A DNA stretch of 64,000 nt. Origin: a virus. A model generated the notes under the pieces. It did not search any database, was not told the DNA's origin, and was given only the letters and a program-made list of their open reading frames with translations. The stretch lies in the IMG/VR virus record IMGVR_UViG_3300025666_000003, positions 36,108 through 100,107 of that record; one strand, written 5' to 3'. Shown piece by piece: positions 20,294-38,278 of this stretch; position 1 is the stretch's first letter; each line of letters starts with the position of its first letter. The translations under genes were made by a program, and so were the position numbers.

Positions 20294-20353
20294 GTCTATT
20301 ATTTATTATAAATGTATTAAAATTTTATAAGTTTAGTAAACCTATAAAGTTTA

Positions 20354-23300
20354 CTAAAACATGAAAGGGAATACATTTGAACCCATAACATACCCACCAT
20401 CTTGTTGATATTGTGACATTGCATTGTCTACATCACTTCCAGCATAACCAGCTTGTTTAGCTAAAGCATCTCTGGCAGCTTTTTGTGCTACTGCAGCAGG
20501 TATACCTTGATCTAAATATTGCTGGAACCATTCATCATATGTCTTAGCTGTACGTTCACCTGTAAACTTTTTCTTCTCCCCTGTATAATCCATTTGACCA
20601 CCTACAGATGGGTCAACTGAATACTGCGGATACATTTGATTAAGTGCATCTGTTTTCCATCTATTGGTAATTGCTCCTGTATACAATCCTCTACCTTGAG
20701 CTCTTGATTGAGCCATTGAATTATCATATTGTTGATTAGCAATTGTATTTTGATCATACAATCTTTGATTTTTCTGAGCTTCTAACATACGCTCTTGATT
20801 TCTAACACCTACGTTAGCTTGTTCAAATTGATTTGCTATTCCAACATTTTGTGTATTGTGTCTTGAAATTGCTTCTGCAGTATTTCCTGCTAATTGACCT
20901 TGTATAGAACTTGCTCTTGCGGATGCTGCTTGTGGTCCTGTAAATTGAGATAAACCTTCCATCATTGAAGCAGCACCTGCTGTAGCTAGATTAGCATCAA
21001 ATCTTGGATCAGTAAATGTAGGATCCATTTCTTCAAGATCAACACCTGGTGCCCACGGCATGTACTTGTTGATTCTTGATCTGTCCATTATGTTACCTGC
21101 AATGTTTACTTCATCTTGCAACCACCATGGAGCGGGTCCTCTTGGGCCATCAGGTTCAATATCTACTTCTGTTTTCTTTCTTTCTTTTTCTTCTTTTAAA
21201 TCTTCTTCACCATATCCATAGTTACTTATACCAGCTAATTGACCTGCAGTTGTATTTCCATATATTGATTGTGATAAATCATCACTAAAATCATCAATAG
21301 GTGATACATTTGGAAACCTCTGACCTGTTTCATCTGAAGCACCCATTTGAACATTATTTGCAAAACTACGTAAAGCATACTGTTTATCTTGATCTGTATA
21401 AAGACCTTTATCAACATTATCAGTTAAAGTTGTATAACCATGGAAAGTAGCTTGTTGAAGTGCTCTTTCTTTTCCGCTAGCTTCAAGAGGAACTCCAATC
21501 AGCTTTGATGCATTCTGAATAGTAGTCCAACCTTTTTCTTTATACGTTTTGATTAGTTCTTTGCCTTCTTCTAAAGTTTTAACAATTTTTTTATTTACCA
21601 ATTCCTGAGCTGTTTTTAAACCTCTTCCACTATCTATAAATACTCTTGAGTTAATATCATTAGCACCAAGTTTAAGATTTCTTTCTTGATGTTTTAAGAA
21701 TGAAGCTATGATTTGATCATCTGTAGGTTTGGTATAACCTCTAGCACTCCATGTTTTACCATACTTTCCAGGTTTTCCATTTTTCCCTTTTCTTTTATAT
21801 GATTCTTTATTATCTAAAGCTGCCAAAGTTTGTTTAATAATTTCTGCTCTTACTATAGGATCTTTTACTGAAGCTACTAAAGCCTGATATTGTCCAGCTT
21901 CTACACGAGTAGCGTCTCCACCCCAAGAATCTATATCAGTACCTGAGTATTCAGGAAAAGTATTTTGTGTTTTTGTTATTTTTCTTCTCTTACCATCATT
22001 ACCAATAACTACTAACACTTTATTAGCTTTCTCAGCTTCATTAAATTTAAAATATTTAGCTCTTTTATACTCAGCTTCTGTTTTATAGTCTGATCTATTA
22101 ATAACTATTTCACCTTCCTTTTTTGCTCCACCCCCTTGATATTTATCAAGTTGACCACCACTTCTATAACTTGAATTACCATAATTCATTTCTGAATTTG
22201 GCATCATGTATCCTTCAGGCATCATATGATATCCTTCAGGTGTAGATTCTCCTCCAGTTTGAAATGTTGTTGAAACTCTAGGTTTTTTTCTTTGATGAAA
22301 TAAATCATATACTCTATCACCAAATGTTCTATTATATATATCTTCAGCTTCTTGATTTGAACCATATACATTTAAATCTGCATTTGGATTATAATGAAAA
22401 CTTTTATTTCCTTTTTGTACATATTCAGGACTGTTTGTAAATTCTTCAGAATTAGGATCTAATCCAATTTGATTATAAGAAGTATTATCTGCATCATTAA
22501 GATCATTAGTAGAAAACATAGTTTCTGGTAGTAAAGAAACACCTGTTTGAGCTTGAGGTATAAATCTTTGTAAACTACCTCCATTTCGTGCCATTGGCAT
22601 TTCTTCACAAGGAACACATTTATCTTGCATTATTGTTTGACCATTAGCTAAAGGCATAGGAACTTTTATCATACAAGGACATTTATCAATTGCATCCATA
22701 CTATTTTGTAAATACCCAGGAGTAGGTTTGCCCCAATCCATTCTATGCATCATTCTACGTTGAAAGTTTTTTTCATATTTAACTTTTTCTTCTGGAGTCA
22801 TTGATGGATTAGGTGTAGGTGAAATAATTTTTTCAAAATTTTGTCGGTTAAGATTGTATTCATTCTTTTTCTCCCACCAATCTTTTTCCTCTTGAGACCA
22901 TTTTGTTGGATCTGAAAGATTAGGATTATCTTTTAAATAATCTATTGTTTCTTGATCATTTTTAAACTCTTTTGGAAAAACTTCTCCATCCTTTTGATAT
23001 TTAGGAATAAATCTATTAAGAGGAGCTACTGATTCATAACCGTATCTAGCTAATGGCATTTCCTCCATTGGCTGCTGTTGTTGCTGTTGTTGATCCTGTT
23101 GAGCTAATTGTTGTTGTTCTTGCAACATCTCTTCTGGTAAAATATCTTGATCAGTAAGCCCCATCTTTTCCATGTAGGGTCTAGCAACTTGAGGAATACC
23201 TTGTTCAAAGTTTTTTAAAGATTCTTGTGCTAAAGCAAGTGCACCGAGTTTCATTTGAAACTCTTGTATCATTAATTCAGCAGTAGCAATATCTTTTTTA

Positions 23301-23776
23301 TCAGAATTAGGACTCTGTAAAATTTCTCTATATTTATTAATATCATATTGCTTAGCTAATTCTGCAGGAGTGTATCCTCTTTTAGATTTACCTTTTTTAT
23401 CAACTTTACCAAACATTGCTAAGACTTTTGGATCTTTAATCTTCATTTGATTAAAGTCACTAAAGATAAATGTATTAGCTGGAAGATTTAATGGTGTTCC
23501 TCCATTATTATGTCGTTTACCACCAATTACATAAGTTTCTGCAAAGTTATCTCCATTAATATCACCGTATGCAACTTCACCTTTTTCAGCTTCTAAATTA
23601 GCATTTTCCCTAGCTACTGGTTTTAAAGTACGGGAAGTTGATGTATTTTGCATTTTATTTTCATTAACATCTGCACCACCAAAGTTTCCAAATTGTTCTG
23701 GAACTGTGTTACTATAACCATTTGCAGCGCCTCCTGCTTTAGCTTGCGGTAATCTTTTTATTCTTACTCTACGCAT
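20354..23776 (-). CDS. Putative capsid cargo protein (1140 aa), modular, with repeated xxGG linker motifs
   Basis: N-terminal block ANLEAEKGE...GGKRHNNGGTPLNLP..FIFSD resembles crAss-like cargo proteins (from recall). Has a poly-Q stretch, a Q/N/A-rich helical C-terminus and about 9 linker motifs. Confidence 0.65.
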   Translation of the reverse strand: MRRVRIKRLPQAKAGGAANGYSNTVPEQFGNFGGADVNENKMQNTSTSRTLKPVARENANLEAEKGEVAYGDINGDNFAETYVIGGKRHNNGGTPLNLPANTFIFSDFNQMKIKDPKVLAMFGKVDKKGKSKRGYTPAELAKQYDINKYREILQSPNSDKKDIATAELMIQEFQMKLGALALAQESLKNFEQGIPQVARPYMEKMGLTDQDILPEEMLQEQQQLAQQDQQQQQQQPMEEMPLARYGYESVAPLNRFIPKYQKDGEVFPKEFKNDQETIDYLKDNPNLSDPTKWSQEEKDWWEKKNEYNLNRQNFEKIISPTPNPSMTPEEKVKYEKNFQRRMMHRMDWGKPTPGYLQNSMDAIDKCPCMIKVPMPLANGQTIMQDKCVPCEEMPMARNGGSLQRFIPQAQTGVSLLPETMFSTNDLNDADNTSYNQIGLDPNSEEFTNSPEYVQKGNKSFHYNPNADLNVYGSNQEAEDIYNRTFGDRVYDLFHQRKKPRVSTTFQTGGESTPEGYHMMPEGYMMPNSEMNYGNSSYRSGGQLDKYQGGGAKKEGEIVINRSDYKTEAEYKRAKYFKFNEAEKANKVLVVIGNDGKRRKITKTQNTFPEYSGTDIDSWGGDATRVEAGQYQALVASVKDPIVRAEIIKQTLAALDNKESYKRKGKNGKPGKYGKTWSARGYTKPTDDQIIASFLKHQERNLKLGANDINSRVFIDSGRGLKTAQELVNKKIVKTLEEGKELIKTYKEKGWTTIQNASKLIGVPLEASGKERALQQATFHGYTTLTDNVDKGLYTDQDKQYALRSFANNVQMGASDETGQRFPNVSPIDDFSDDLSQSIYGNTTAGQLAGISNYGYGEEDLKEEKERKKTEVDIEPDGPRGPAPWWLQDEVNIAGNIMDRSRINKYMPWAPGVDLEEMDPTFTDPRFDANLATAGAASMMEGLSQFTGPQAASARASSIQGQLAGNTAEAISRHNTQNVGIANQFEQANVGVRNQERMLEAQKNQRLYDQNTIANQQYDNSMAQSRAQGRGLYTGAITNRWKTDALNQMYPQYSVDPSVGGQMDYTGEKKKFTGERTAKTYDEWFQQYLDQGIPAAVAQKAARDALAKQAGYAGSDVDNAMSQYQQDGGYVMGSNVFPFMF

Positions 23777-23785
23777 AATACAAAT

Positions 23786-25954
23786 TTATATAAATTCTAG
23801 TTCTCCACCACTATTAATGAAGTCTTCTATATCTTCTTCACTCATATACATTTCATCACCTATCTGTCCACCTTTTTGTGATACACCTCTGAATCCTTGT
23901 TGATTTGGTCTAAAGTTACCTTGTTGACCCCAGTCACCTACTTTCTTTTTTCTTGTTACAGGGTTAAAAGCTTCAGCATTAGTTTGATCTTCCAACCATT
24001 TGTCTCTTGATTTTTCAGCTGGTTTTTCAAATATGTTACCTATAGTCCAGTTAGCTTTTGCATTAAAACCTTGAACCAATTTTTCACCATCAATATTATA
24101 CATATCTTTTTTTTCATAATCTACATCAGCTTTTCCTTGATTATCTCTATCATTTTGTGTAATTAATCCATCATTTTGATAGTTTCCATCTTCACCCATT
24201 GTAATTCCAGGTGTATAATTTTCATTTGTAAATGAATTAGTTATGTTTTTCATTAAAAATGGATTTTCAACTTGACTATTAAGACTGCCACCAACATCTT
24301 CGTTAATATCAAATGAAGGGTTTCCTTGAAAATCTCTACATACACCATCTGCGCCTTTAAAATAACCAGGCTTGCAAGTTTCTAGACCCATCTGTGCTCT
24401 ACTTAAGTTACCATTTTCTTGTCTTTGTTCAGGTCTACCTTGACGTACTTTATTCCACATATTTTGGAATACATTAGTACCACCTGTATCATTACCTTGG
24501 ATACCTTGCTGTGTTTTCCATTTCATTCTTTCAAATATATTACCTTCATCTGGAACTTTGTACCCTGCATCAATGGCATCACGTCTTTGTTCAACAGTCA
24601 TGTTTTCTGTATCACGTTTATTAATTCTACCTCTACTGTTAACAGGTGCATCTATCATAGGCATTTGTTGATTACCTAGTCGATTCATCATACCATCTGA
24701 TCCTCTATACATTGTAGGTGCTTCATAATTTTCTAATGCTGCACCAGGTACTATATTTGTTCCATATGTAGTTGTCCATTCTTGTGGTCTACCTCTTCTG
24801 CTTGCTTTAGTTACCTTAGTTTGTGTAGCATCATTGTAATTTATCCCTCCTGTATAAGGATTACCTTCCATATCTCTAGCATTACTGGCTTGTGCCCAAG
24901 AACCTTGGTATTCTACACCTCTGTTGAATGGTATTAAATCTCTCCAATTTCTTTTACCTTTCATTTTTTTATCAAATAAACCAGGATAAATGTTTTGTCC
25001 AGTTGATGTTTTACCAATTATACCACTATTAATTCTTCTTTGATTATTTATTTGCTGATCAATATACTTATCTCTTTCAGCTTGTATTCTTCTAGCTTCT
25101 GCATCATCTTTAACTTCACCTTCTGTTTGATATTTTTGTATACCACCTTTAGAAAATCTTGTAAGATCACCATCTACAAATCCACCATACTGGTTCATTT
25201 GTTGTTGTTCTTGGATCATTGCTTCATACTGCTCTTCAGCTTGCTTCTTTAAACTAGATTCATTTGAAGCTTCTTTAAGACCACTCATAAATTCTTCCTT
25301 AATTCTTTTTCTATCTCCTAGTGCACTATCTGTAATAGTTGCTTTAGTAACTTTAGGCTGTTCAGGTTGACCTACATCACCCATTTGTTTTTTAGCAAGT
25401 TTCATTACATTACTAACAAATTTCTTTTTACTTATTTGACCACCTTTTTTTGCTTCTACAAGTTCATCATCATACAAGTATGACTCATCAAGATCTTCAT
25501 TCATCATTTGATCATTCATCATTTGATTAGCTGATGGTTGTGATTGTATCATTTGTTCTTGCATTCCAGAATATTCAGGAGCTGTTTCTGCTGCAAGGTC
25601 ATCTTGTGGTTTTGGAATTCTTTTTTCATTAAATGAATCAACAACTGAACTTATCATTTTAGATAATTCTTCAGGATTTATTTGATCTTTAAGTTGTTTA
25701 AGTAAAGCTTCATAAATTATTTGTGGTTCTTCACCTTCTTCTAATGCTTGTGAAATAACACTAAGTAATTGTTGTTTTGGATCAACTTGTTGTTGTTGCA
25801 TAGGTTGCATAGGTTGTTGTTCCATAGGATATTGTGCTTCAGCCATATTACCGCCTTCCTGCACTCTATTCATAAACTGAGCTGTCCTATTTACATAAGC
25901 TCCTGCTCCTTCTGTAGCACCTCCTGCTTTATATACTCTTACACGTTTCTTCAT
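23786..25954 (-). CDS. Putative cargo protein (722 aa), Q/M-rich and modular
   Basis: Motifs YKAGG, VQEGG, AKKGG, NQYGG, FSKGG, SQKGG. C-terminal tag DEMYMSEEDIEDFINSGGELEFI. Confidence 0.55.
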   Translation of the reverse strand: MKKRVRVYKAGGATEGAGAYVNRTAQFMNRVQEGGNMAEAQYPMEQQPMQPMQQQQVDPKQQLLSVISQALEEGEEPQIIYEALLKQLKDQINPEELSKMISSVVDSFNEKRIPKPQDDLAAETAPEYSGMQEQMIQSQPSANQMMNDQMMNEDLDESYLYDDELVEAKKGGQISKKKFVSNVMKLAKKQMGDVGQPEQPKVTKATITDSALGDRKRIKEEFMSGLKEASNESSLKKQAEEQYEAMIQEQQQMNQYGGFVDGDLTRFSKGGIQKYQTEGEVKDDAEARRIQAERDKYIDQQINNQRRINSGIIGKTSTGQNIYPGLFDKKMKGKRNWRDLIPFNRGVEYQGSWAQASNARDMEGNPYTGGINYNDATQTKVTKASRRGRPQEWTTTYGTNIVPGAALENYEAPTMYRGSDGMMNRLGNQQMPMIDAPVNSRGRINKRDTENMTVEQRRDAIDAGYKVPDEGNIFERMKWKTQQGIQGNDTGGTNVFQNMWNKVRQGRPEQRQENGNLSRAQMGLETCKPGYFKGADGVCRDFQGNPSFDINEDVGGSLNSQVENPFLMKNITNSFTNENYTPGITMGEDGNYQNDGLITQNDRDNQGKADVDYEKKDMYNIDGEKLVQGFNAKANWTIGNIFEKPAEKSRDKWLEDQTNAEAFNPVTRKKKVGDWGQQGNFRPNQQGFRGVSQKGGQIGDEMYMSEEDIEDFINSGGELEFI

Positions 25955-25972
25955 TATAAACTTTATATATAT

Positions 25973-25987
25973 TAATATACTAAATTT
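25973..25987 (-). promoter_or_regulatory. Candidate phage promoter motif TTTAGTATATTA
   Basis: 18 nt upstream of the ATG at 25954. Shares 15 of 15 nt with the 43634 copy. Confidence 0.6.
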
Positions 25988-26013
25988 TGATGTATTGTTT
26001 AAACTTTATAAAT

Positions 26014-28323
26014 TTAAAATTCTTCTACTACATAACCACCGTCTCTATACTCTTGTATTTCTTCATCACTTAATTCCATTTCTATAAAGTTACCACCTTT
26101 AGAAAACTTATATGATTTTCCTTTGTCATCACTTTCTAATGCTGCACCAGTTGCTATTGCTCCTGGTATTATACCATATGTTTTATTTAAGACATCTGTA
26201 ACTGCTTTAATCCAATTTTTACTTCCTACAGGCATAGTAGGACTCATACTAGCAGATCCTGGTGAATTTAAAGAATAAGCATCTAAATAATTTAAAAGTT
26301 TATATATATCATCATATTTTCCACGTTGTAGTTGTCTCCCGCCTTTTACACCTCCCCTGTAATCACCTTTTAAAACCTTATGTTTATAGATACCTCCTTC
26401 TTCTGAGGGAGCTGACCATTCCCCAAACATGTTTGACTTTGCAAATTCTGTTTCTCCTTCGTTTAATCCTTTCCCCAGCTTTTCAACCATTTCCTCTGTA
26501 ATCTCATCTCCCATTTTTAAACCAGCATTTTCTTCTAACCAGCCGATAGCTTTTCTAAATCTAACTTGTTGTTCTGGAGCAATTGATTGATACTCTGCAC
26601 CACCAGGTATACTTACATTTTTATCTTCAGTAAGCTTTAAAGCAGGATAATTATCATATAAAGGTTGACCATGAAGTTTCCCATCTATAGAAATATAAGG
26701 ACCTTTTGAATCACTGAATAAATGATTAACTTCATGGTCTATAACACCTAAAACATCTTCTTTACTTTTATTTTTTAAGTTTCTAGTATTAATCGCTATT
26801 TTACCATTTCCTTCATATACACCACCCGCTTTATCTCCTAAGTCTTTTAAAGTAATAGAACCTTCATTAAATTCTTTTGTAAATTTTTCTATAGACTCTG
26901 TTACTTCCTCTCTACTTCTACCTGTAGCTTTCATATTATTAGTAATAAACTTATCAGTCGTAAGTCTACTTTTTATTTTTTGAACTATATCAGCAACATC
27001 TTTATTTGTTACTCCTAATTTAGACAAATCTGCAAGATCATTTGATTTTCCTAAAAATTTATTTATATTTGGATCTACTTGATTCATTCTTTTGTATACT
27101 GATACAATTTCATCTACAGGTGTTCCTTGTGCAATTGAATTAATAATTTCAGCTTTAGGTACGGATAAAGATATTTCGTTTAATTTAGGATTTAGTTTAT
27201 CTAAAGTACTAAATACTGATTCTAATGTAATAAGTGGAACTTCGTTTTTTAATGCAATCTCTGCAAAATCTTTTAATTGTTCATTTGTTACACCTGTTGG
27301 TAATTTGTAATCTTGGAAATTACCCATTTTTGGTACAGAATTATTTGTAACATAATATTTTTTATCAATTGATGCAGTGTTTTTTATTACATCATCAATT
27401 AATTTCTTAGCTAAAATTTCTTGATGCGTACCTACTTTTTTATTTATTAAAGCTTCTGCTTTTTTAAGTTCAGGAATCTTATTAAAAATTTCAGGACTGC
27501 GCCCTTTTAACTTGTCTAAAGTTTGTTTAAGTATAGTTTGATCATAAAAACTAATATCATCAGCAAGAGCTTTTGGAGCTTTTGGAACTTTTATATTTTT
27601 AGCTGATGCTGGAAGTGCTTTATGAGCTTTTCTTATTGCACGCCATTCTTTAGTTCCTGGTATAAATGCAAGTAAACCTAAGGCAGCTTCTACGTAATTT
27701 TCATTATCTATTGCCATATCTATGTCACTTGCCCATTTAAGTGGATTACCCATTTGATTAACAAAGTCAAGTGGGTTGGATCCTTGTCCTTTTCCTTCAT
27801 CACCATAGCCAAATTTTTCTCGGAAACTTGATGCAGTTGGATCAATTCCTGCATATAACATTTGATTATAGTTTCTTGGCATATTATCTAAGCCTCCACC
27901 TACAAATGAATATTTAGCTGCTGCAAAAGGATTACTAACAATATCTGAAAATCTGTCAATACCTCTATCCCAAGAACTAGGCTTGTCCCATTCTTCTACA
28001 GTGCCATGATTTTCTTTAGCAGTAGCATGCATATCGTATATGTCAACTAATTCACTAAGACTTTTAATATTATCTTTTACCATGTCTCCACTACCTGCTT
28101 CTCCTGTTTTAATTAACTCACGAGCAATTGCAGCTTTTTGTTGAAATATATTTATTGATTCATCAGTTAAATCTCCTCCATTTTTTGGTGGGTAATAGTT
28201 ATAAGGTTGTGTTGATTCAGAAACTGCTGGAGCATATGCAGGATTATCTAAAATTGGGTCATAAGTTGCCCCTGTTCTACCTTTTTGTGCTTTTGGTAAA
28301 GCTTTTATTTTATATCGTGCCAT
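26014..28323 (-). CDS. Putative cargo protein (769 aa) with an HExxH zincin-like metallopeptidase domain
   Basis: GVIDHEVNHLF (HEVNH at 26722-26736), preceded by AGGVY..GKIAIN. Leader MARYKIKALPKAQKG. C-terminal tag EMELSDEEIQEYRDGGYVVEEF. Confidence 0.6.
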   Translation of the reverse strand: MARYKIKALPKAQKGRTGATYDPILDNPAYAPAVSESTQPYNYYPPKNGGDLTDESINIFQQKAAIARELIKTGEAGSGDMVKDNIKSLSELVDIYDMHATAKENHGTVEEWDKPSSWDRGIDRFSDIVSNPFAAAKYSFVGGGLDNMPRNYNQMLYAGIDPTASSFREKFGYGDEGKGQGSNPLDFVNQMGNPLKWASDIDMAIDNENYVEAALGLLAFIPGTKEWRAIRKAHKALPASAKNIKVPKAPKALADDISFYDQTILKQTLDKLKGRSPEIFNKIPELKKAEALINKKVGTHQEILAKKLIDDVIKNTASIDKKYYVTNNSVPKMGNFQDYKLPTGVTNEQLKDFAEIALKNEVPLITLESVFSTLDKLNPKLNEISLSVPKAEIINSIAQGTPVDEIVSVYKRMNQVDPNINKFLGKSNDLADLSKLGVTNKDVADIVQKIKSRLTTDKFITNNMKATGRSREEVTESIEKFTKEFNEGSITLKDLGDKAGGVYEGNGKIAINTRNLKNKSKEDVLGVIDHEVNHLFSDSKGPYISIDGKLHGQPLYDNYPALKLTEDKNVSIPGGAEYQSIAPEQQVRFRKAIGWLEENAGLKMGDEITEEMVEKLGKGLNEGETEFAKSNMFGEWSAPSEEGGIYKHKVLKGDYRGGVKGGRQLQRGKYDDIYKLLNYLDAYSLNSPGSASMSPTMPVGSKNWIKAVTDVLNKTYGIIPGAIATGAALESDDKGKSYKFSKGGNFIEMELSDEEIQEYRDGGYVVEEF

Positions 28324-28325
28324 AA

Positions 28326-31300
28326 TTATATTTTTTCAAAAACGTAACCTTGTTTTTCTAATGCTTTTACTTCTTCATATGTAAGTTCAACTTCATCATT
28401 TATTTTACCATTAAATTGTGTTGTACCGCCTTGTTCTAAAAACTTAGGGTTACTGATAGATGCAATTGAAGGTACTGAATCTAATTCTTTATCTTGTTTT
28501 ATTTTTCTTTTTATTTCTGCACGTTGCCGTGATCTTTTATCTACTGGAAGACCAAGAGATGCACCTAAAGTAAATGTAGGACGGAATCCTAAATTTTCAG
28601 AATTATTTGATTCTGTATCTGTTTTTTTACCTAATACTGGATTAAACATTACTCCTGCATTTAGTTTAAGAATTGAATTATTTTTAAGTTTTCTTTTATA
28701 ATCTGCTTTAATACCATAATTTAATCCAAGTTGTGCTTCTTTTCTATCTTCACCAAATACTTGTGTTGCTGATGCATGTGGTTTTGTTTGTGCATTCATT
28801 CCACCATAAGGAGTTATGTTTAATTCATTTTGCCTATTTTTAATTGCGTGAATTTTATGACCTGCGCTTAAATCATAATACCCTCCTCTTACTGGATCTA
28901 AACCTATATTTTGTTTCATGAAGTTTTTAGCTGGCCAACTTCCTCTTTGTTCAGTTCCAAACTCATAACCTGCTTTAGCACCAAAACCAAAGTTACCACC
29001 ATAGACATCTCCTGATAAAGTGTGAATATTAGATCTATCTTTTGTCCCTCTAAATTCATGCTCTAATCCAAGATTACCCATTAAACCATAGTCATCTGAA
29101 TTATACTGCGGACCTAAAGAAAGAGTTGTGCCATTCTGAGCTTGTGGTAATTCCTCTACTACGTAGCCTCCATCTTTGTATGCTTTAATCTCGTGTTCAT
29201 CTAAGTCAAGTTCAATATAATTATTATTTTGCCCACCACTTTGCAAAAATCCTATTTTTCTAGATTCTAAGTCTTCAGGTTTAACAGCTTTCTCTCGTTG
29301 CACCCATCCTATTACAGGTTCTTTCACCCATTCTAAAGTACTAGCTGGTGGCTTAACTGTTCCTGGTGTAGATTTTTTCTTTATAGGTGCAGGCTTACTA
29401 ACAGGTATATCTTCAATAGAAACCTCTGGACTTGCTATAGGTTCAACATTTCCTATAGGTCTTTCTGTACTTATAGCAACAGCATCTGCACGTTCTTGAT
29501 CAGTCATGTTCCGTCCATTCTTCTTATAGTATTCAGCATCAGCTATAAAGGCATCTAGTGTTGGATATTTTTCTTTATCTACATTCTTGTACGCAGCTTT
29601 ATATGACTTCTTAGGTTGTATTATATTAATCAAGGTACCAAATGTATTAGGATCAGGAAGTAATTCTTCTTCTTCTTCTTCTTTATATATGTAAGGTTGA
29701 ACTGGTTTTGAATATGTTACATTGTAACCTGAATATTGTGGTCCTGAACCTGTTAACCATTGACTCCAAGTTTGGTGTGGTGTATATGCACCTGTTGGAC
29801 CTATAGTAGGATGACTAAATTCAGCATGGATAGCTTTATTCTTTAGATCTTTTGTAGGTTTTTTATTTTCATCCCAGTTATCCGAAACTCTTATATTAGG
29901 ATTATCTGGATGCGGATAGGATGCTGCTGAAACACTATTATAAAGCTGTGGTGGTTGATTCATTGGTTTGGTTGCTTGATATAAATCTCCCAAGCTCTCA
30001 GAACTATTTACAGAATCGAAACCTATTAAATCACCTACTCTATTTTTGAAATCATTACTAAAGTTATAAAGATCTAAACTATCCTTATAACCCTGTAATC
30101 TTGGATCATCAGGATCTGTTAACTCTATAGGCTTTCTACCTCCTCTTTGAGCTTTAGGTATAAATCTATTTAATGTGCCTCCTTTTTGCAAATAACTACC
30201 TGTACTTAGATTATACTCTTTTAAATCTTTAGGTTTAACAGGTCTCTGTATTTGATACCAAGTTCCTGTTTGTGGATGTTTTACCCACTGTAGAGTAGAA
30301 GCTGGTGGTTTAACTGTTCCTGGTGTATCAGCAGGGGTATCTTTAATAGGAACTTTTGGTATTCTGTATGCACCCATTCTTATATCAAAGTAATCAGGGT
30401 CAGCACCTTGCCTCTCCATTAATTTCTTCATTTCTGGCCCGTCAGTGATACTTATTCCGACAGGTGCATGATATGTGTAGTCATCATCTTCATACATTAC
30501 ACCTGGATTTTCAACAGGTTTTATATAATAATCTTTGTCAAGTACCTCTATACTTTTTATTTGATTTTCATCTGTACCATTATTCCCTATATAATCAGTA
30601 ACGTTAGTTATCTTAGCTAAATCTTCAGCAGGCATATTTCTACCATTCTTCTTATAGTATTCAGCATCAGCTATAAATGCATCAATAGTTGGATATTTTT
30701 CTTTGTCTACATTTTTGTATGCATCTTCATATGACTTCTTAGGTTGTATTATAGTACCAAGTGCCCGTCCAGATGAAGAACTAGAAGATGAAGTTTTGTT
30801 TCTAGTTAATTCTTTTTCTTCTTCAGTCTTCATATCCCAAGGCTTTATTGAAGTTGGATTATAATAAGGTAACTTTGTCAAAGCTCCAGGAGTTTTGGCG
30901 CGAACTTTGTTTTGTTGCAGTTGTCTATAAAGAAGAACTTTCATATCTTTCTCAGTAAAGCCTTTAGATTTAGCATACGTAATAAGGTCTTTTTTACCAG
31001 TATTGGTGTCATCATATTCCAAAAAAAGATGAAGATTATCAGGATCTCTGTGAAGCTTTTCATAAAGCTCACGTTCTGTTTTGTTTAACTTATTATAACC
31101 AAACATATTTTTTGGAGTGTACATTATCTCACCTTCAGGTTTTATTCTGTGATCATATCTTAGTAAAGGTGCATTAGTATCTATTGCACCTGTAATCATA
31201 TCACTTGTGTAAGATATGTTTGGATCATTGTTACGCTCAATTATTTTTGTATTATCATATGATAAATCAGAATGACCCATAGTTTCTGCCTCAATTTCTT

Positions 31301-32888
31301 TCATTCTTGAATTAGTTTCACCCCAATGAGGAAAAATATCTACATCGTAAAAATTTTTATTTTTATCATAAAACCCCTGAACTTCCATTGCATTATTGTA
31401 AAGATCTAAACTATCTTGTCTAGTAACTTCTATTGGTGGTACTCTTCTTGATGGAAAAATGCCAGTTTGTGCTTTTGGTAAGAATATATTTTCGCCACCT
31501 TCTTGTAAAGTATTAGTAAACATTTTAAGCTGAGCTAATGTAGGTTTGAAAGGTTTTTTAGTTATACTACTTGTTCCAATATTATACGATGGACCTTGTG
31601 CACGTCTTTCTCTTTCGTACCATGTTCCAGTTGAAGGTGATTTATGCCAAGTAGTAGCAGATCCAGGTAATTCAAGAAGAGCATTATTTGTCTTATCATG
31701 AATAAGCTGTTTATCAATTTCTTTAGTTGGTATTTGTTCTAAAGGTTTGGTAGGAAGTGTAGGAGTTTGCGCTTCTTCCCATGCTGCTTTATCCATTACT
31801 GGTTTCTTGTAAACAGGTGACGTATGACTACCATCCCAATATGTTCCTGTAGGTTTTATTGTCTCGTGATATAGATCAGGAGATGTTGCAATACTATTTC
31901 TTACATTACCATTGAATGGTAAAGTATCATAGTAGTTTAATATTTTTTCAGCACTAGGATCATCTGTACCATAAGCATTTATTAAAGCTTTCCTGTTAGA
32001 GAATCCACCTGCATTATAATTATTCCAATCCCAAGAATGATTACTTGCCATAAATCTATTACGTCTATCTTTTAAACCTTGTTCAAGAGTAAGTCCTTTA
32101 TTGTTATAATATCTTTCCATGGATTCTTTCTGAGCAGGATCATTACCCAAAACTTCCATTGTAGACAATTGGTTAGCCTTTTGAAATTGATAAGCATTGT
32201 ATAAATTTAAACTATCACTATAGGCTGCTTGATTAAATATATCACCACCTGTTTGCTTATTTTGTAAATGTTCTGGTAATTGATCTTTCCAAGAACCCAT
32301 TCCAAAAGCTAATGCAGCTTCCTTATCCTTTCCAAAATCATATACCTCACCTCTTTTCTCAGCCTCTTCATATATTGGCCACCAACCATCTTTTTCATCA
32401 GACATGTCAACCCAATTTCTAGAGTCGTCTGCGTATGGTTTAGAGTCTTGAAATAATGAAGGGAATGCTACCCAACCTCTTCCGTCTACGTACTCTGCTT
32501 TCATTAAGTGAGAGGATACATCAGAAGGTCTAGAAAACTGACCTGAAGGTGTCCAAACAGAATGCCCGTCATAGTTTTCTCTTGTCCCTCTTCTTTGTTT
32601 TACAGTATGACCACCAGATTGCATTTGTGGAAATTCATCAACATAGTCTGCACCGGGAAAATTATAATCTTGTCCTGGTTGCATCATCATACCTGGGCCA
32701 ACATTAGGTTGTGCCCATACAGGGTAAGGTACATTATCCATAGTAATATCACTACCTGGAATTCTTGTATTTTCTCCAGGATGAGCCCATTGTCCTCTTG
32801 GATCTTTTATTATATCCTTTGGTTTTGATGGAGCTTTTGCTTTACCTAATTCTGATATAGCTTTTGAAAGAAGTTTTTTATTATACAT
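28326..32888 (-). CDS. Putative multi-module cargo polyprotein (1520 aa): three paralogous modules plus a beta-barrel-like module
   Basis: Ten linker motifs, internal protein and DNA repeats, and an amphipathic beta-strand module near the C-terminus. Confidence 0.6.
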   Translation of the reverse strand: MYNKKLLSKAISELGKAKAPSKPKDIIKDPRGQWAHPGENTRIPGSDITMDNVPYPVWAQPNVGPGMMMQPGQDYNFPGADYVDEFPQMQSGGHTVKQRRGTRENYDGHSVWTPSGQFSRPSDVSSHLMKAEYVDGRGWVAFPSLFQDSKPYADDSRNWVDMSDEKDGWWPIYEEAEKRGEVYDFGKDKEAALAFGMGSWKDQLPEHLQNKQTGGDIFNQAAYSDSLNLYNAYQFQKANQLSTMEVLGNDPAQKESMERYYNNKGLTLEQGLKDRRNRFMASNHSWDWNNYNAGGFSNRKALINAYGTDDPSAEKILNYYDTLPFNGNVRNSIATSPDLYHETIKPTGTYWDGSHTSPVYKKPVMDKAAWEEAQTPTLPTKPLEQIPTKEIDKQLIHDKTNNALLELPGSATTWHKSPSTGTWYERERRAQGPSYNIGTSSITKKPFKPTLAQLKMFTNTLQEGGENIFLPKAQTGIFPSRRVPPIEVTRQDSLDLYNNAMEVQGFYDKNKNFYDVDIFPHWGETNSRMKEIEAETMGHSDLSYDNTKIIERNNDPNISYTSDMITGAIDTNAPLLRYDHRIKPEGEIMYTPKNMFGYNKLNKTERELYEKLHRDPDNLHLFLEYDDTNTGKKDLITYAKSKGFTEKDMKVLLYRQLQQNKVRAKTPGALTKLPYYNPTSIKPWDMKTEEEKELTRNKTSSSSSSSGRALGTIIQPKKSYEDAYKNVDKEKYPTIDAFIADAEYYKKNGRNMPAEDLAKITNVTDYIGNNGTDENQIKSIEVLDKDYYIKPVENPGVMYEDDDYTYHAPVGISITDGPEMKKLMERQGADPDYFDIRMGAYRIPKVPIKDTPADTPGTVKPPASTLQWVKHPQTGTWYQIQRPVKPKDLKEYNLSTGSYLQKGGTLNRFIPKAQRGGRKPIELTDPDDPRLQGYKDSLDLYNFSNDFKNRVGDLIGFDSVNSSESLGDLYQATKPMNQPPQLYNSVSAASYPHPDNPNIRVSDNWDENKKPTKDLKNKAIHAEFSHPTIGPTGAYTPHQTWSQWLTGSGPQYSGYNVTYSKPVQPYIYKEEEEEELLPDPNTFGTLINIIQPKKSYKAAYKNVDKEKYPTLDAFIADAEYYKKNGRNMTDQERADAVAISTERPIGNVEPIASPEVSIEDIPVSKPAPIKKKSTPGTVKPPASTLEWVKEPVIGWVQREKAVKPEDLESRKIGFLQSGGQNNNYIELDLDEHEIKAYKDGGYVVEELPQAQNGTTLSLGPQYNSDDYGLMGNLGLEHEFRGTKDRSNIHTLSGDVYGGNFGFGAKAGYEFGTEQRGSWPAKNFMKQNIGLDPVRGGYYDLSAGHKIHAIKNRQNELNITPYGGMNAQTKPHASATQVFGEDRKEAQLGLNYGIKADYKRKLKNNSILKLNAGVMFNPVLGKKTDTESNNSENLGFRPTFTLGASLGLPVDKRSRQRAEIKRKIKQDKELDSVPSIASISNPKFLEQGGTTQFNGKINDEVELTYEEVKALEKQGYVFEKI
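29515..30753. repeat. Imperfect ~110-bp direct repeat (about 29515-29625 and 30643-30753), plus a second ~45-bp repeat (about 29325-29369 and 30282-30327)
   Basis: Both long copies read ccattcttcttatagtattcagcatcagctataaa...atatgacttcttaggttgtattata and encode IIQPKKSYxxAYKNVDKEKYPTxDAFIADAEYYKKNGRNM. The short pair encodes TPGTVKPPASTL(Q/E)WVK. Confidence 0.95.
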
Positions 32889-35800
32889 TACCTTGGGGAT
32901 ATTTGATTCTTAGTATTAACTATTTTCACTACCATGTTTACACCATTTGATATATCTTTTCTTAAATATAGCATATTATTGTAATGTCTGAACTTTTTTC
33001 TTTGCAAAGGTTCTTTTGTATAATTAAGATTAAATTCATTTAAAGCTTTAATATAACCATTTGATTCTGTAATCCAAATGTGTCTTTGTTGTTTTCCACC
33101 TAGTTGAGTTGTTGTTCCAGGAATTACTGGATTAGTAGTTGGACTACTTGAGCCTACAGGAAACTCTCCTCTATCTCTTGTTATATCCCAAAACTGATTA
33201 AATCTATATTTATGTTCTTCCTTTGAAAATAGTATATCTATTGAACTACCATTTATGATAGGGTATGTGAGATTTAAAGGAACATTGTTTTTAGGATATA
33301 TAAATAAATCTAAATATCCGGATACTTGCTCAGTGTTATGTATTACAGCTGTATCAAAATTATAATCTAATACATGAAATTGATCTACACAATTATATTC
33401 ATTTCTTCTATAGCACTCAAGTAAATATTCTACACTTTTCATTGTAGTTATTGTCTGTCCAGTCACTATAGGAATTTCAACTTCAAATGGATAGTTAGTA
33501 CCATAAAAGTTACAGTATTCATTACATAAATTATTATGTTTCCAAACACCGTTATCTTTAACAGTTAAAAAATTACCTTTAGATGCTAGCATTATATTTG
33601 GATGCCAGTCATGATGAGAAACCCAGAATTTAGATTTTGGATCATATGACATTGTCCAAGAAGCATCTTCAAATATATTTGCATCTTTAAGATTAGTTCT
33701 TATTACATCATCTACTATAAATTGTTTAAGTTCTTCATTCCAAACTACTCTTCCTTTAAACGGATCTTTTAATTTGTAATCTTTTTTAGCAAAGTAAAGT
33801 ACACTGTTTTCATTATCATATATTGAATGACATCCAATACCAGCTACTGGATTATCAGTATGTGGATAATTTGGAAAATCTTCTAAAAGTTGAAATGGTA
33901 AGAATTTATTAAACCACCATTTTAATCCTGAACTTGATATTTCTTGTAAACCAGATGCATATGAAAATATTTTACCTTGATTTTGACTTATGTAAAACAT
34001 ACCAGCTGGCGTAGATATTACACTTCTTCCATTTTGAGATGATCCATATTCATATTCTTCATCTGCAGCTACTACATTTTGTGCAGCTTGATTAAACAAC
34101 CCACCATCACCTAAGGTAACTTTAGTACCTAAGTCTGTTTGTAAAGTATCAACACCTTGGTAAACCATAGGGCTTGCATTTTTAAACGTAATAAATATAC
34201 CCGTTTTAGCAAAGTTTTTTACACTACTTATTTGATTTTTAAATTCTTTATAATTATTAGGTAAATACATAAACCATGAATCTTTTACTGATTCTAATTC
34301 TTGTGGTAATGAATAAAGAATTCTATCTGGATAATATGTATAACAAAGTTCTGCAACTTGAGGATCATAAAACCTAGTTTGAAGATTACCTTGTGAAAAA
34401 TATTGAGTAAACAATTTTGATATACTTAAAGAGTAATCATATTCGTTATAGTTACCTCTAGTAATAACATCTGGATTCATATTAAATAATCTATACAAAT
34501 CAGTATATCCATATGGGTCATAATGTTTTTCAAAAATTTCAACACCTTGTTCTCTAAAATCTACAATAACATCACTCTCAACATAAAAGTCTCTTACAGC
34601 TGATGTAGACAAATAGAAGTATGCATTTTTAATTCCAAATATTCCGTTATTAAGATTAGCTATTGTTCCTAAAATACTATTATCATTACTGTAATTATAA
34701 TTTTCCCAATCTAGATTATAATAATTATGTGGAAACAGTCCTTCACCTTCAGGAGGTGTATTAAATGGATTAATAAAATCTATAAGATTTGCCCACATTG
34801 CATTGGCTTCATATCTTATACTATTCATCCAGAATCGTGGATCAGGAATCATCTTTCTATTTAGATAATTATATTCAGTTCCATCTGGTTGATCATATAA
34901 CCAATCATGAAACATAAACATAGAATTCTTTTCTGTATATCTATTAATGTAAGTATCTCCTTCAAATAATATAGGCGTTGTTTGAATAATTTTTTGTTCA
35001 AATTGAGGAAGGCTGCATGCTGGAGCTAATGTAGTAATGGGAATATCAGCATACTCAAACTTTTGTTCACACGGTGTAATTGGAATTTGCTTTATTGCTT
35101 GTAATTGCCCATACTGATTTCCTATACGTACTTTAATACCTCCGTAATGACTTTTGATATTTTTATTAAAAGTTTTTGTTTTACCTTTTTTAAAGTCAAC
35201 ATGTGATACATCAGAAGTACCTATAGTAACTAATGAATCATCAGCTCCAGGCCCTGTAAGAAAATTTGGACCACCTGTTACTCTGCTAACTCCTTCAGAA
35301 GTTCTAATAACTACTGTTTCAGATCTTCTAAGATTATTAATTCTATAAGTAACTGGAAAGCCAAAAGTTGCAGGTGTATAACTAGACATTTCTTGAAGAT
35401 CTTGACCTAAATAAAATTCATCTTCTATATTAAATCTACGTATCTTTGTTAGATCAACTTTATTAAACGTATCATAGTACCCATGTGCAATTAATTGAAG
35501 AGCACGTTGTCTATAAGGTACAAGAGAATATATTAATCTAATTACTAAATCTGCTCCTTCTGAAAAGTAATATAGCATTTGTGCTAAATCATTGCCAAAT
35601 ACATTTGCTAAACTACTATTTTTAAGATATTGATGTTTACTTAACTCTGTGTCATAACTAGGTGCTGTGTATGTACCACCTGCACGTAAACCACCATCTA
35701 AATTAAATTTATCATAATGATCTTGTAAAGAGCCATCTGTACCTACTCCTGGAATGAATGAAAAGATACTTGATAAACCTTCATTTACAGCTTCACCATT

Positions 35801-38278
35801 ATTAAAATAGTCATCATATTCATTTGTGTATGTAGGTTCATCATTATTTGTAAATTCATCAACACCTGAACCACCAGTGACTCCAGAATCATCTGAGTAT
35901 TCTACTATTTCTGTAGAACCATCATTACTGTTAAGTGGACTTATAGTTCCTGGAGTAAGTAATCCAGAACCACCCGTTAAAAAACCACTTGTACCACTTG
36001 TACCACCTCCACCACCAATTGAATTTTGGGTATAGTCATCACCAAAGACTCTAGTAAAACTAGCTCCTGGAGCATTAATAGTTCTCTTACCTAAATTAGC
36101 TATGATAGCTTCAATAATACCACCCATAATAGCAGCCCACATTGCAACATCTTTTAAAAGCTTATCTTTAGGATGCTTACTAGGTTCTATAAACTGTTGA
36201 TCGCTTTCACCACTTATATTACCATATAGTTTTAATTCTGTAGTTCCTAAAAAAGGTTCTTTAAATTCAGTATCTGGTGAGTGAAATGTTATTATGTCTT
36301 CTGGAATATTTGCTTCAGTAATATCAATTGTATCATCATCATTGTCTACTGCTCTGATATATGGATCAACAGCACCATTGACACCTCCTGTTGGATTAAT
36401 AGTATTAAAAGGATGATTAGGGTATAATCCTGCTGTACCACCCCCTGTTACTCTGTAAGGTCTCATATTATTAAGCATACCTTTTGCTATAATAGTTTTG
36501 TTTCCATCACGAGCTCCTCTTAATATTTCATATCCTACTAAATTTGGTATATCATTACCATCATTATCTTTAGGATAAATTATATTTTCAAACAATACTC
36601 CTAGAATTCTAATTTTACTACCATCAGTTCCGTTATCTATAAAATGATTTACATCATCGTTTACACTTTGTTCTGGAAACTTATGATGTCTAATTTGCAA
36701 TCCACATAAATCCCATTGTTCACTTGCTTGACCATATACACCTGTCCAACACTGAGCACTTGAATTCCAAATTTCAGGTTTATTATCAGGATAAAATTCT
36801 GTTGACTGCCAGTATCCCATGTCACCTGTTCTTAACACTACACCACCATCTGGAAGTACTGTTCCATTTGGAGTACCTGATGTAGCTGTATTTATAGTTT
36901 CAAATAACAGTGTATCATCAGGAAGGCTATCGTCATCTGAGTATACAGAATTTTCAAACAAACCAGTATTTTGAAATAATCTTGGCCCTCTACCTGGAAT
37001 ATGATAAGATGAAGTTTTATCTCCTGTATTGTATACCCATCTAATAAAAAATGGATAATTTTCATCTCTTAAATAACTAGGCTTATGCCCACCTTTAGAA
37101 TAATATCTTGCAGGATATTCTACTGAAGCCCACTTAGCTTTAATTAAATTTGCTAATGGTTGATAATTAAAATCAAATTTAGATGTAGGACCTATTCTTA
37201 ATAAATAGTTATCTATCTCAACTATTTCATCTGATCTTTCAAAAATAGGATTTTGTAATGGAATAAGACTTAATTGTACAGGAATAAGATCTTCTTTTAT
37301 TTGATCAATATATATAGTTGTTGTACGAGTAGAATAGTATCCTATCTTTTTTGCAACAGCACCTTGATTTATATTTTGAATTATAACAAGTTCAAATTCA
37401 TCAAAATGTTCTGAATCAGCTTCTACATTAATCTTTAAGCCACCTCTTGCATTATCTTTATGCCAAATAGGCTGAACATTACTAGGTGAATAATAATCTG
37501 TAACTTTCTGATTTTTAATAGTATACGCAAGTACTACAAAATATGAACCATTAAATAAAGTACCACCTTGTGTACCAGATTCAATTGTTAAACAAGGTGT
37601 ATCAACTAACCTAGCTAATCTAATAGCATTGCAATCAAGCTCTTGTGTATCTACACATATCTTACAACCATTTACAATTGGACAATCTTCAATCCATTGT
37701 ACACCTGGCCATTGTATAGTATCACTTCCATTTGTATATTCATTATCACTTGCCCATACAAAATCATTTGAAGGCCATATTTGAGGATCCCCAATGTTTA
37801 AATACCTATCTGGATTATTACTATCTGCAAAATACACTGCCCATGAACAATCTTCCTTTTCTCTTGAAGCTCCTGTAATTAAATTATATCTATCAAAGTT
37901 TAAACAATTATCCTGAACAATAATTTTATAACTACATAAGTCTTCTTGAAATAAACCTATTTCATCTTTTTTACCTGTTTGACCGGGTCCTAAAATAGAA
38001 GTTGTAAAAATTACCCAGTTATCACTAAATAAATGTATTGCACCAATTATTTCTTTTTCAGAACCTACTAATGTTTCCCCTGCAGTAATACATAAATAAT
38101 TAGAAGATTCATTTGATAATGTACCTAAGTTACCTTCTGCTGTATTATTTACAGCATTACGAGCATGTGTCCATTCTCCTTCAGATACAAAAGATGGATC
38201 CGCATCTTTGTTTAACCCTTTAAAAAAAGTATTAGTATTTAGTTGACCTGTATTTTGTTTTCCTTGTTTTTTAGCCAT
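32888..38278 (-). CDS. Tail muzzle / stabilisation protein (P22 gp10-like), 1796 aa
   Basis: N-terminus NTFFKGLNKD...WTHARNAVN, beta-rich propeller-like composition, and C-terminal WTMSYDPKSKFWVSHHDWHP. Lies after the ring proteins as in crAss-like phages. Confidence 0.8.
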   Translation of the reverse strand: MAKKQGKQNTGQLNTNTFFKGLNKDADPSFVSEGEWTHARNAVNNTAEGNLGTLSNESSNYLCITAGETLVGSEKEIIGAIHLFSDNWVIFTTSILGPGQTGKKDEIGLFQEDLCSYKIIVQDNCLNFDRYNLITGASREKEDCSWAVYFADSNNPDRYLNIGDPQIWPSNDFVWASDNEYTNGSDTIQWPGVQWIEDCPIVNGCKICVDTQELDCNAIRLARLVDTPCLTIESGTQGGTLFNGSYFVVLAYTIKNQKVTDYYSPSNVQPIWHKDNARGGLKINVEADSEHFDEFELVIIQNINQGAVAKKIGYYSTRTTTIYIDQIKEDLIPVQLSLIPLQNPIFERSDEIVEIDNYLLRIGPTSKFDFNYQPLANLIKAKWASVEYPARYYSKGGHKPSYLRDENYPFFIRWVYNTGDKTSSYHIPGRGPRLFQNTGLFENSVYSDDDSLPDDTLLFETINTATSGTPNGTVLPDGGVVLRTGDMGYWQSTEFYPDNKPEIWNSSAQCWTGVYGQASEQWDLCGLQIRHHKFPEQSVNDDVNHFIDNGTDGSKIRILGVLFENIIYPKDNDGNDIPNLVGYEILRGARDGNKTIIAKGMLNNMRPYRVTGGGTAGLYPNHPFNTINPTGGVNGAVDPYIRAVDNDDDTIDITEANIPEDIITFHSPDTEFKEPFLGTTELKLYGNISGESDQQFIEPSKHPKDKLLKDVAMWAAIMGGIIEAIIANLGKRTINAPGASFTRVFGDDYTQNSIGGGGGTSGTSGFLTGGSGLLTPGTISPLNSNDGSTEIVEYSDDSGVTGGSGVDEFTNNDEPTYTNEYDDYFNNGEAVNEGLSSIFSFIPGVGTDGSLQDHYDKFNLDGGLRAGGTYTAPSYDTELSKHQYLKNSSLANVFGNDLAQMLYYFSEGADLVIRLIYSLVPYRQRALQLIAHGYYDTFNKVDLTKIRRFNIEDEFYLGQDLQEMSSYTPATFGFPVTYRINNLRRSETVVIRTSEGVSRVTGGPNFLTGPGADDSLVTIGTSDVSHVDFKKGKTKTFNKNIKSHYGGIKVRIGNQYGQLQAIKQIPITPCEQKFEYADIPITTLAPACSLPQFEQKIIQTTPILFEGDTYINRYTEKNSMFMFHDWLYDQPDGTEYNYLNRKMIPDPRFWMNSIRYEANAMWANLIDFINPFNTPPEGEGLFPHNYYNLDWENYNYSNDNSILGTIANLNNGIFGIKNAYFYLSTSAVRDFYVESDVIVDFREQGVEIFEKHYDPYGYTDLYRLFNMNPDVITRGNYNEYDYSLSISKLFTQYFSQGNLQTRFYDPQVAELCYTYYPDRILYSLPQELESVKDSWFMYLPNNYKEFKNQISSVKNFAKTGIFITFKNASPMVYQGVDTLQTDLGTKVTLGDGGLFNQAAQNVVAADEEYEYGSSQNGRSVISTPAGMFYISQNQGKIFSYASGLQEISSSGLKWWFNKFLPFQLLEDFPNYPHTDNPVAGIGCHSIYDNENSVLYFAKKDYKLKDPFKGRVVWNEELKQFIVDDVIRTNLKDANIFEDASWTMSYDPKSKFWVSHHDWHPNIMLASKGNFLTVKDNGVWKHNNLCNEYCNFYGTNYPFEVEIPIVTGQTITTMKSVEYLLECYRRNEYNCVDQFHVLDYNFDTAVIHNTEQVSGYLDLFIYPKNNVPLNLTYPIINGSSIDILFSKEEHKYRFNQFWDITRDRGEFPVGSSSPTTNPVIPGTTTQLGGKQQRHIWITESNGYIKALNEFNLNYTKEPLQRKKFRHYNNMLYLRKDISNGVNMVVKIVNTKNQISPR

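Follow-up and report, generated by a model that had tools for sequence, protein, structure and literature searches.

A predicted ten-stranded beta-barrel, putatively of outer-membrane type, inside a cargo-type phage protein

INTRODUCTION

How crassviruses cross the envelope of Bacteroidota is an open question. In the structural atlas of PhiCrAss001, gp45 and gp46 were proposed or expected to form a trans-envelope channel, and unfolded extrusion of gp45 through the tail was proposed (PMC10172136). A 2026 study of phage N4 noted that structures of crassvirus ejection proteins are still needed (PMC13434306). In short-tailed phages, the outer membrane (OM) ejection proteins characterized so far, T7 gp14, P22 gp7, DEV gp73, and N4 gp52, are all helical (PMC11445570, PMC13434306). 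Here, we analyzed a 64,000-nucleotide stretch (hereafter, the window; positions 36,108 to 100,107) of the virus record IMGVR_UViG_3300025666_000003, and we focus on a segment of its 1,520-amino-acid (aa) open reading frame (ORF), designated P0001. An earlier reading of the sequence (the original prediction) had described this segment as an OM beta-barrel-like module inside a cargo polyprotein. No report of a barrel resembling an outer membrane protein (OMP) in a crassvirus cargo or ejection protein was found in the full-text literature.

We read the segment as an autonomous, conserved barrel module of 196 residues and OM type, which may act after ejection as an OM anchor or a narrow pore. Taken as a whole, we consider this reading evenly balanced between being right and being wrong; its parts are weighed below.

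RESULTS

The segment is predicted to fold as a closed ten-stranded barrel

Nucleotides 28540-29130 of the window, to which the module had been assigned, correspond to residues ~1253-1450 of the open 1,520-aa frame, and in the translation PQAQNG precedes the segment, LEQGG follows it, and the nine quoted strands are all present. The fold was predicted with AlphaFold2 (AF2) in two runs. In the first, a 226-residue piece with a 14-sequence alignment gave a predicted local distance difference test score (pLDDT) of 80.2 and a predicted template modeling score (pTM) of 0.71, with ten meander strands of 11-16 residues and a C-terminal helix. The second run, on residues 1205-1520 (a 316-aa cassette) with an 18-sequence alignment, returned the same ten strands at pLDDT 80-93, with linkers and tags below 50. 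The nine quoted strands thus stand, and the models add a tenth that had been missed, strand 5, which starts with AKNFMK. The strands span the following residues.

AF2 strands 1 to 5: residues 1253-1263, 1268-1280, 1287-1298, 1301-1314, and 1320-1331
AF2 strands 6 to 10: residues 1335-1350, 1354-1367, 1387-1400, 1406-1416, and 1436-1448

Because the strands are confident and the flanking linkers and tags score low, the barrel appears to be an autonomous bead on a flexible string. In the models, one end carries both termini and four short, net-basic turns, and the opposite end two 19-residue loops, a layout like that of OMPs. The prediction is of good confidence and shows a closed antiparallel meander barrel with an even strand number and its two termini at one end, not an open sheet or a sandwich. 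The ORF and its parts are as follows; P-numbered proteins other than P0001 are relatives described in the next section.

28326..32888, minus strand: the 1,520-aa ORF P0001, an open frame encoding a modular, Cys-free, cargo-type protein without an alpha-helical transmembrane (TM) segment
32601..32888, minus strand: N-terminal leader of ~96 aa (residues 1-96), 45-64% identical to P0005, P0009, P0017, and P0020
29151..29219, minus strand: acidic tag of ~23 aa (residues 1224-1246) upstream of the barrel, modeled at low confidence as a short helix
29133..29150, minus strand: linker LPQAQN (residues 1247-1252) of the recurring type P-x-A-Q-x-G(G), abutting strand 1
28545..29132, minus strand: the ten-stranded up-and-down beta-barrel module (residues 1253-1448), as predicted by AF2, fold searches, and the family alignment
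28482..28538, minus strand: Lys/Arg-rich basic helix (residues 1451-1469) directly after the last strand, conserved among relatives in the form of an RKIKK..AKQ-like stretch
28395..28481, minus strand: predicted disordered linker with FLEQGG (residues 1470-1498), from the model and the sequence
28329..28394, minus strand: C-terminal copy of the tag (residues 1499-1520), which also ends the neighboring 769-aa protein

Strand 1 opens at G1253, the invariant second Gly of the linker motif.

Foldseek searches with the model against the Protein Data Bank (PDB) gave 13 matches at E <= 0.001, all 13 of them transmembrane barrels, led by the designed 10-strand nanopore TMB10_163 and including PcoB, NanC, OmpG, Omp33, and autotransporter and invasin beta-domains. 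Against BFVD, the matches were phage-encoded OMP-like proteins. VIA-align, a geometry-only structural aligner, also ranked TMB10_163 first (Z 14.8, root-mean-square deviation 2.4 Å over 142/143 residues), and the natural 10-strand OMPs OpcA and OmpT scored Z 12.8 and 12.2, respectively. The barrel-like character proposed originally is thereby borne out at the level of prediction, while the more specific label "porin-like" does not fit, as ten strands place the module in the OpcA/OmpT class. A role as the conduit for DNA falls as well, a monomeric ten-strand barrel being too narrow for DNA; we rejected both a porin and a DNA conduit on strand number.

The module is a conserved and mobile domain

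Among 1.84 billion representative proteins, an exhaustive search with phmmer identified 17 (13/17 at E <= 1e-10), and a profile search added more. The homologues of the module amount to ~20 proteins, with E-values that range between 1e-146 and 1e-11, so that the segment is conserved far beyond chance. With a hidden Markov model (HMM) of the domain only, exactly one copy each was detected in ~20 metagenomic proteins of 285-1,898 aa, and no copy in gp44-46 of PhiCrAss001 or in the window's other large ORFs. These ~20 proteins share the strand pattern and ~20 invariant or near-invariant residues even where identity falls to ~25-30%. The N-side boundary is always a GG linker, a basic helix follows the last strand, and an acidic tag of ~22 aa often stands on one or both sides. 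The position of the module within its carrier varies as follows.

Barrel from residue 9: P0006 and the protein on TARA contig L004
Barrel after a common leader of ~95 aa: P0005, P0009, P0015, P0017, and P0020
Barrel at residues 231-470, upstream of crAss_CARG1: P0016, P0021, and P0022 (P0023 has the same barrel, with no CARG1 recorded)
Barrel near the C-terminus: P0001, P0004, and P0014

The middle parts of the barrel proteins that share the leader differ, which argues for shuffling of modules between fixed ends. The crAss_CARG1 domain was found in barrel-bearing P0016 (E 1.1e-14), P0021, P0022, and P0024, and the CARG1 part of P0016 matches gp45 of PhiCrAss001 and other crassviruses.

These data bear on the possibility that the barrel is an over-confident prediction of what is a Gly-rich, largely disordered or beta-aggregating spacer. 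The alignments behind the models are shallow (14-18 sequences), and two loops reach a pLDDT of only 41-60. Set against this are the agreement of both AF2 runs, with strands at pLDDT 80-93, and the retention of the strand pattern and invariant residues at the identities given above; we consider a spacer of this kind very improbable.

No match to the ORF or the module was obtained by tblastn against 50,697 deposited phages, and none was found with the module alignment in IMG/VR or GTDB genomes; a metagenome scan with the same alignment gave two loci only. A word-indexed protein search at near length found no relative. A TARA Oceans scaffold is the source of one relative. Residues 42-83 of P0014 gave a borderline match to a SET domain (E 1.8e-4, 22.3 bits versus a cut-off of 22.4), in a region that overlaps the part homologous to residues 26-206 of P0001.

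Sequence tests point to a membrane-type rather than a soluble barrel

Hydrophobic and polar/Gly columns alternate along the predicted strands. In 13 non-redundant homologues, the mean difference between the faces was 0.48, a value reached by 0/2000 within-strand shuffles. The hydrophobic face consists of Leu (14%), Gly (14%), Ala (12%), Tyr (10%), Phe (9%), Val (9%), and Ile (9%), with 4% charged residues. The polar face contains 24% Gly; the module has about ten near-invariant Gly residues, most of them on that face. For calibration, a sequence-only dyad detector was applied to 8 Escherichia coli OM barrels, 30 non-OMP proteins (2 soluble barrels, 8 other E. coli proteins, and 20 proteins of the same phage), and 14 family modules, with the following results.

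8 E. coli OM barrels: polar-face Gly 12-32%; hydrophobic-face aromatics 30-42%
30 non-OMP proteins: polar-face Gly 0-17.6%; hydrophobic-face aromatics 5-27%
14 family modules: polar-face Gly 17-39%; hydrophobic-face aromatics 21-36%

Polar-face Gly exceeded every negative control in 12/14 modules, and the hydrophobic-face aromatics of the modules lay between those of OM barrels and controls. In addition, the near-duplicates P0011 and P0012 matched the Pfam family OMP_b-brl within the module at E 9e-4, and a third member did so only below E = 1. Among the protein-language-model neighbors of two queries, all named ones were OM-barrel families (PagL-type lipid A deacylases, Porin_O_P, OMP_b-brl, DUF3316, DUF6850, YfaZ, and TraO); these are leads only, because all scores are <= about 0.9. 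The last strand approximates polar-x-G-x-x-hydrophobic-x-hydrophobic (column 196, 85% polar; 198, 62% Gly; 201, 100% hydrophobic; 203, 92% hydrophobic), a loose beta-signal-like motif that lies away from the chain end.

Other tests did not discriminate. The window's own copy of the module matched nothing in Pfam, PHROGs, or PDB-sequence searches. An aromatic-girdle test by within-strand position showed no difference, and a crude tally of dyad-hydrophobic segments failed to tell OMPs apart from soluble beta proteins. When the module profile was compared by hhalign with E. coli OmpX, OmpW, OmpT, and OmpA, with Blc and YceI as controls, the best match was OmpX at a probability of 11%, which is uninformative.

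Several results weigh against an ejected, membrane-type barrel. In VIA-align, the soluble 10-strand barrels Rv2717c (Z 12.7), phycobilin (CPES) lyase (12.4), THAP4 nitrobindin (11.9), and nitrobindin (11.6) score almost as high as the OMPs, so that topology does not separate a membrane from a soluble barrel. The best OMP_b-brl score was 19.9 bits versus a curated cut-off of 28.7, with matches in 3/14 members, and the family profile hit only flank noise among PDB sequences, giving no significant link to a solved OMP. Column entropy was equal on both barrel faces, as was the variance of side-chain volume. By a rough estimate of barrel volume, the hydrophobic face fits inside, so either face could be the inner one, and the outward direction of the hydrophobic belt is read from sequence statistics only.

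The module might accordingly be a soluble ten-strand barrel of calycin-like type (nitrobindin, Rv2717c, or FABP), with a hydrophobic core, the Gly/polar face on the exterior, and a role as a ligand- or lipid-binding or purely structural cargo domain. The geometric scores fit this possibility, as does cytoplasmic synthesis without a signal peptide; the conservation and volume tests are neutral, and the volume estimate accommodates a hydrophobic interior. Conversely, no soluble barrel was among the Foldseek matches at E <= 0.001, and polar-face Gly with its near-invariant positions is far above that of the soluble controls. The module is also ~40 residues longer than the nitrobindin/Rv2717c-type families and has strands of 11-16 residues, and the Pfam and language-model leads all indicate OM barrels. 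We therefore regard a soluble barrel as unlikely, though it is the rival to be taken most seriously. The lines that support a membrane type are partly correlated because all draw on composition; together they suggest that the module is probably a membrane-type barrel.

The barrel gene occupies the slot of cargo protein 1

Every large gene of the window, whose virus record totals 100,107 bp in IMG/VR, is on the minus strand, and the G+C content of the window is ~30%. The following genes were identified.

53453-56203, minus strand: portal gene (PHROGs)
56206-58407, minus strand: large terminase gene (PHROGs)
50416-52032, minus strand: major head protein gene (PHROGs)
32888..38278, minus strand: muzzle protein gene, a 1,796-aa ORF (Pfam crAss_MUZ, E 1.3e-25), upstream of the 1,520-aa ORF and abutting it

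The terminase is at best ~24-26% identical to deposited crassvirus terminases. With only ~25% identity to any of them, the phage is taken to be deep-branching crass-like, and its lineage is a distant crass-like group, probably an aquatic one. The order of muzzle gene and barrel gene equals that of gp44 and gp45 in PhiCrAss001, which places P0001 in the slot of cargo protein 1. The same arrangement occurs independently of the window on metagenomic contig L005, where the barrel protein directly follows a muzzle homologue (42% identity) and homologues of the window's 1,140-, 1,158-, and 2,255-aa ORFs follow the barrel gene. The cargo setting proposed in the original prediction is consistent with this position in a crass-like virion module and with crAss_CARG1 in relatives. 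In P0001 itself, no Pfam match was found at E <= 1 and no crAss_CARG1 domain was detectable, a point that we return to in the Discussion.

As had also been noted, no signal peptide precedes the module, which follows from its internal position. The maximum 19-residue Kyte-Doolittle mean anywhere in the 1,520-aa ORF is 0.53, and a hydropathy scan found no helical TM window in P0001 or the other cargo-type ORFs of the window. The barrel is the sole membrane-type element detectable among these cargo-type ORFs. A signal peptide is absent even from P0006 and the protein on contig L004, whose barrels start at residue 9 behind a polar N-terminus, and an exported moron resembling Lom was rejected on this ground.

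Residues ~77-95 of P0016, P0021, P0022, and P0023 form a Gly/Ala-rich, weakly hydrophobic segment (hydropathy 1.2-1.4) that resembles the predicted TM helix of gp45 (residues 136-158, hydropathy 1.73). We considered the barrel as a clean replacement of that helix and rejected this idea, as the CARG1-bearing relatives keep the segment. Judged by sequence, the barrel in these four proteins is an addition to the gp45-like element, not a substitute for it.

A membrane-type barrel could also serve a purpose other than insertion at entry, for example, as an aggregation-prone element that packs or condenses inside the capsid, as a plug of the tail lumen, or as a superinfection-exclusion factor. The varied position of the module in its carriers would suit such a role, and the tags that bracket it recur at the C-termini of neighboring cargo-type proteins and may be packaging signals. 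Superinfection exclusion, which the original prediction had raised, is itself unlikely: nothing would export the protein to the OM of the producing cell, and receptors could not be masked by the dozen copies that one infecting virion would bring. Inside the capsid, a barrel that faces lipid would also lack an obvious partner. On balance, we consider a non-entry role improbable.

Neighboring cargo-type ORFs and repeated tags

The ~22-aa acidic tag follows the pattern L-x-L-T/D-x-E-I-x-x-Y-R/K-x-G-G-Y-x-V-E and stands on both sides of the barrel cassette. It also terminates neighboring cargo-type proteins (in the 769-aa ORF, at about 26017-26110) and many relatives, and it could be a packaging or docking signal. 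The 769-aa ORF (26014-28323), which adjoins the barrel gene, contains an HEVNH (HExxH) motif at residue 530. From this motif, its product could be a candidate zincin-type protease for linker processing; no family match to it was found in Pfam or PHROGs, and beyond this motif no linker-processing protease, and no sign of processing, was found. Release of the module by cleavage, as in the original prediction, may or may not take place at the GG linkers.

The cargo-type ORFs of 1,520, 769, 722, 1,140, and 1,158 aa contain 0, 0, 2, 4, and 0 Cys residues, respectively, so that this region (16817-32888) is nearly Cys-free, versus 19 Cys in the muzzle protein. The density of [QKRES]-x-G-G is 3-10 times higher in the 1,520-, 769-, 722-, and 1,140-aa ORFs than in the 1,158-, 2,255-, and 3,352-aa ORFs. 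The 2,255-aa ORF (10060-16827), a giant protein of the RNA-polymerase-associated region, gave a marginal Pfam match to a PD-(D/E)XK nuclease at residues 1582-1631 (E 1.1e-4, 22.6 bits, cut-off 22).

DISCUSSION

The features described above can be arranged into a possible course of events. The barrel, with hydrophobic dyads that would face lipid and a lumen of Gly and polar residues, would lie between flexible linkers in a protein of the cargo-protein-1 slot. Once synthesized in the cytoplasm, this protein would not be exported but would enter the virion as cargo, its barrel segment either unfolded or only loosely folded. On infection, the chain would be extruded unfolded through the tail, and the barrel segment would then fold into the host OM. 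There, it might act as an anchor, or at most as a narrow water-filled pore, that fastens the remaining chain, together with the ejection apparatus, to the envelope. As many as about a dozen copies might surround the tail tip, and the barrel monomer itself would not be the DNA conduit. The basic turns and the basic helix at the end that bears the termini might contact anionic lipid or head groups of lipopolysaccharide (LPS).

A barrel that entered from outside would keep its termini on the cis (outer) side and pass its loops through the membrane, as OmpA unfolded in urea does when it inserts into vesicles in vitro. In an alternative route, the beta-signal-like last strand might recruit the beta-barrel assembly machinery (BAM) from the periplasm.

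The boldest form of this proposal is that a tailed phage delivers an OMP-type barrel from the virion into the host OM from outside, bypassing Sec and possibly BAM. A podovirus-type ejection apparatus would then have, for the first time, a membrane element made of a beta-barrel instead of alpha-helices, and crass-like cargo proteins would carry it as a shuffled module between GG linkers. We put this forward tentatively and think it somewhat more likely to be wrong than right. Virion presence, ejection, and membrane insertion are all steps that we infer, and how the barrel would enter the LPS leaflet from outside, or gain access to BAM, is unexplained. The module is N-terminal, central, or C-terminal in different proteins, which weakens any argument that it is first out of the tail, and CARG1 is not detectable in P0001 itself.

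For the OM step of crassvirus entry, the conserved OMP-like barrel of the cargo slot, which lacks an export signal, is a concrete and cheaply testable candidate. If the proposal is true, the module would be a natural beta-barrel membrane protein that reaches the cell from outside and must then fold into a membrane. This would bear on BAM-independent insertion and on nanopore engineering, the latter because the closest structural match is a designed 10-strand nanopore.

Compared with known barrels, the module most resembles OpcA, OmpT, and TMB10_163. In the model, it shares with them a 10-strand up-and-down barrel with termini and short turns at one end and long loops at the other. It further shares a face of hydrophobic dyads, a face of Gly and polar residues, and the absence of Cys, and it aligns with them in VIA-align at Z 12.2-14.8. 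Unlike these proteins, the module has no signal peptide, lies inside a 1,520-aa phage protein, and has no significant sequence similarity to them; beyond its last strand the chain runs on through a basic helix and further, instead of ending at a C-terminal aromatic residue. It differs from general porins, which are trimeric with 16-18 strands, in having ten; a diffusion pore of that class would call for 14-18 strands and a constriction loop. Nitrobindin and Rv2717c have the same strand number and topology (Z 11.6-12.7) but are only ~150-160 aa long with shorter strands, are absent from the significant Foldseek matches, and lack the Gly-rich polar face of the module.

Phage-encoded barrels of OMP type are known from lambda Lom (of the Ail/Lom family) and from BFVD entries annotated "outer membrane protein beta-barrel," and the module is like them in this respect. 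Stand-alone phage OMPs such as Lom are encoded by separate genes and exported via the Sec and BAM route of the cell. The module, by contrast, is internal to a cargo-type protein and carries no export signal.

Among crassviruses, the gene of PhiCrAss001 gp45 (cargo protein 1, PF25725) directly follows the muzzle gene, as that of P0001 does. Several barrel-bearing relatives share with gp45 the CARG1 portal-binding domain, located downstream of the barrel. Whereas gp45 has a Gly-rich alpha-helical TM segment (136-158) and no barrel, P0001 has a barrel and shows neither a helical TM segment nor a detectable CARG1.

In the podovirus-type systems, T7 gp14, P22 gp7, and DEV gp73/N4 gp52 are packaged in the virion without export signals and expelled, and their insertion into the OM has been proposed or shown (PMC11445570, PMC13434306). 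P0001 would resemble them in these respects. Those proteins are small and alpha-helical and oligomerize to a DNA-sized channel, whereas the module, all-beta in the model, would be a monomeric beta-barrel, too narrow for DNA, in a long chain of many modules. Our finding suggests that virion-delivered, envelope-spanning proteins extend from helical membrane anchors to one formed by a beta-barrel.

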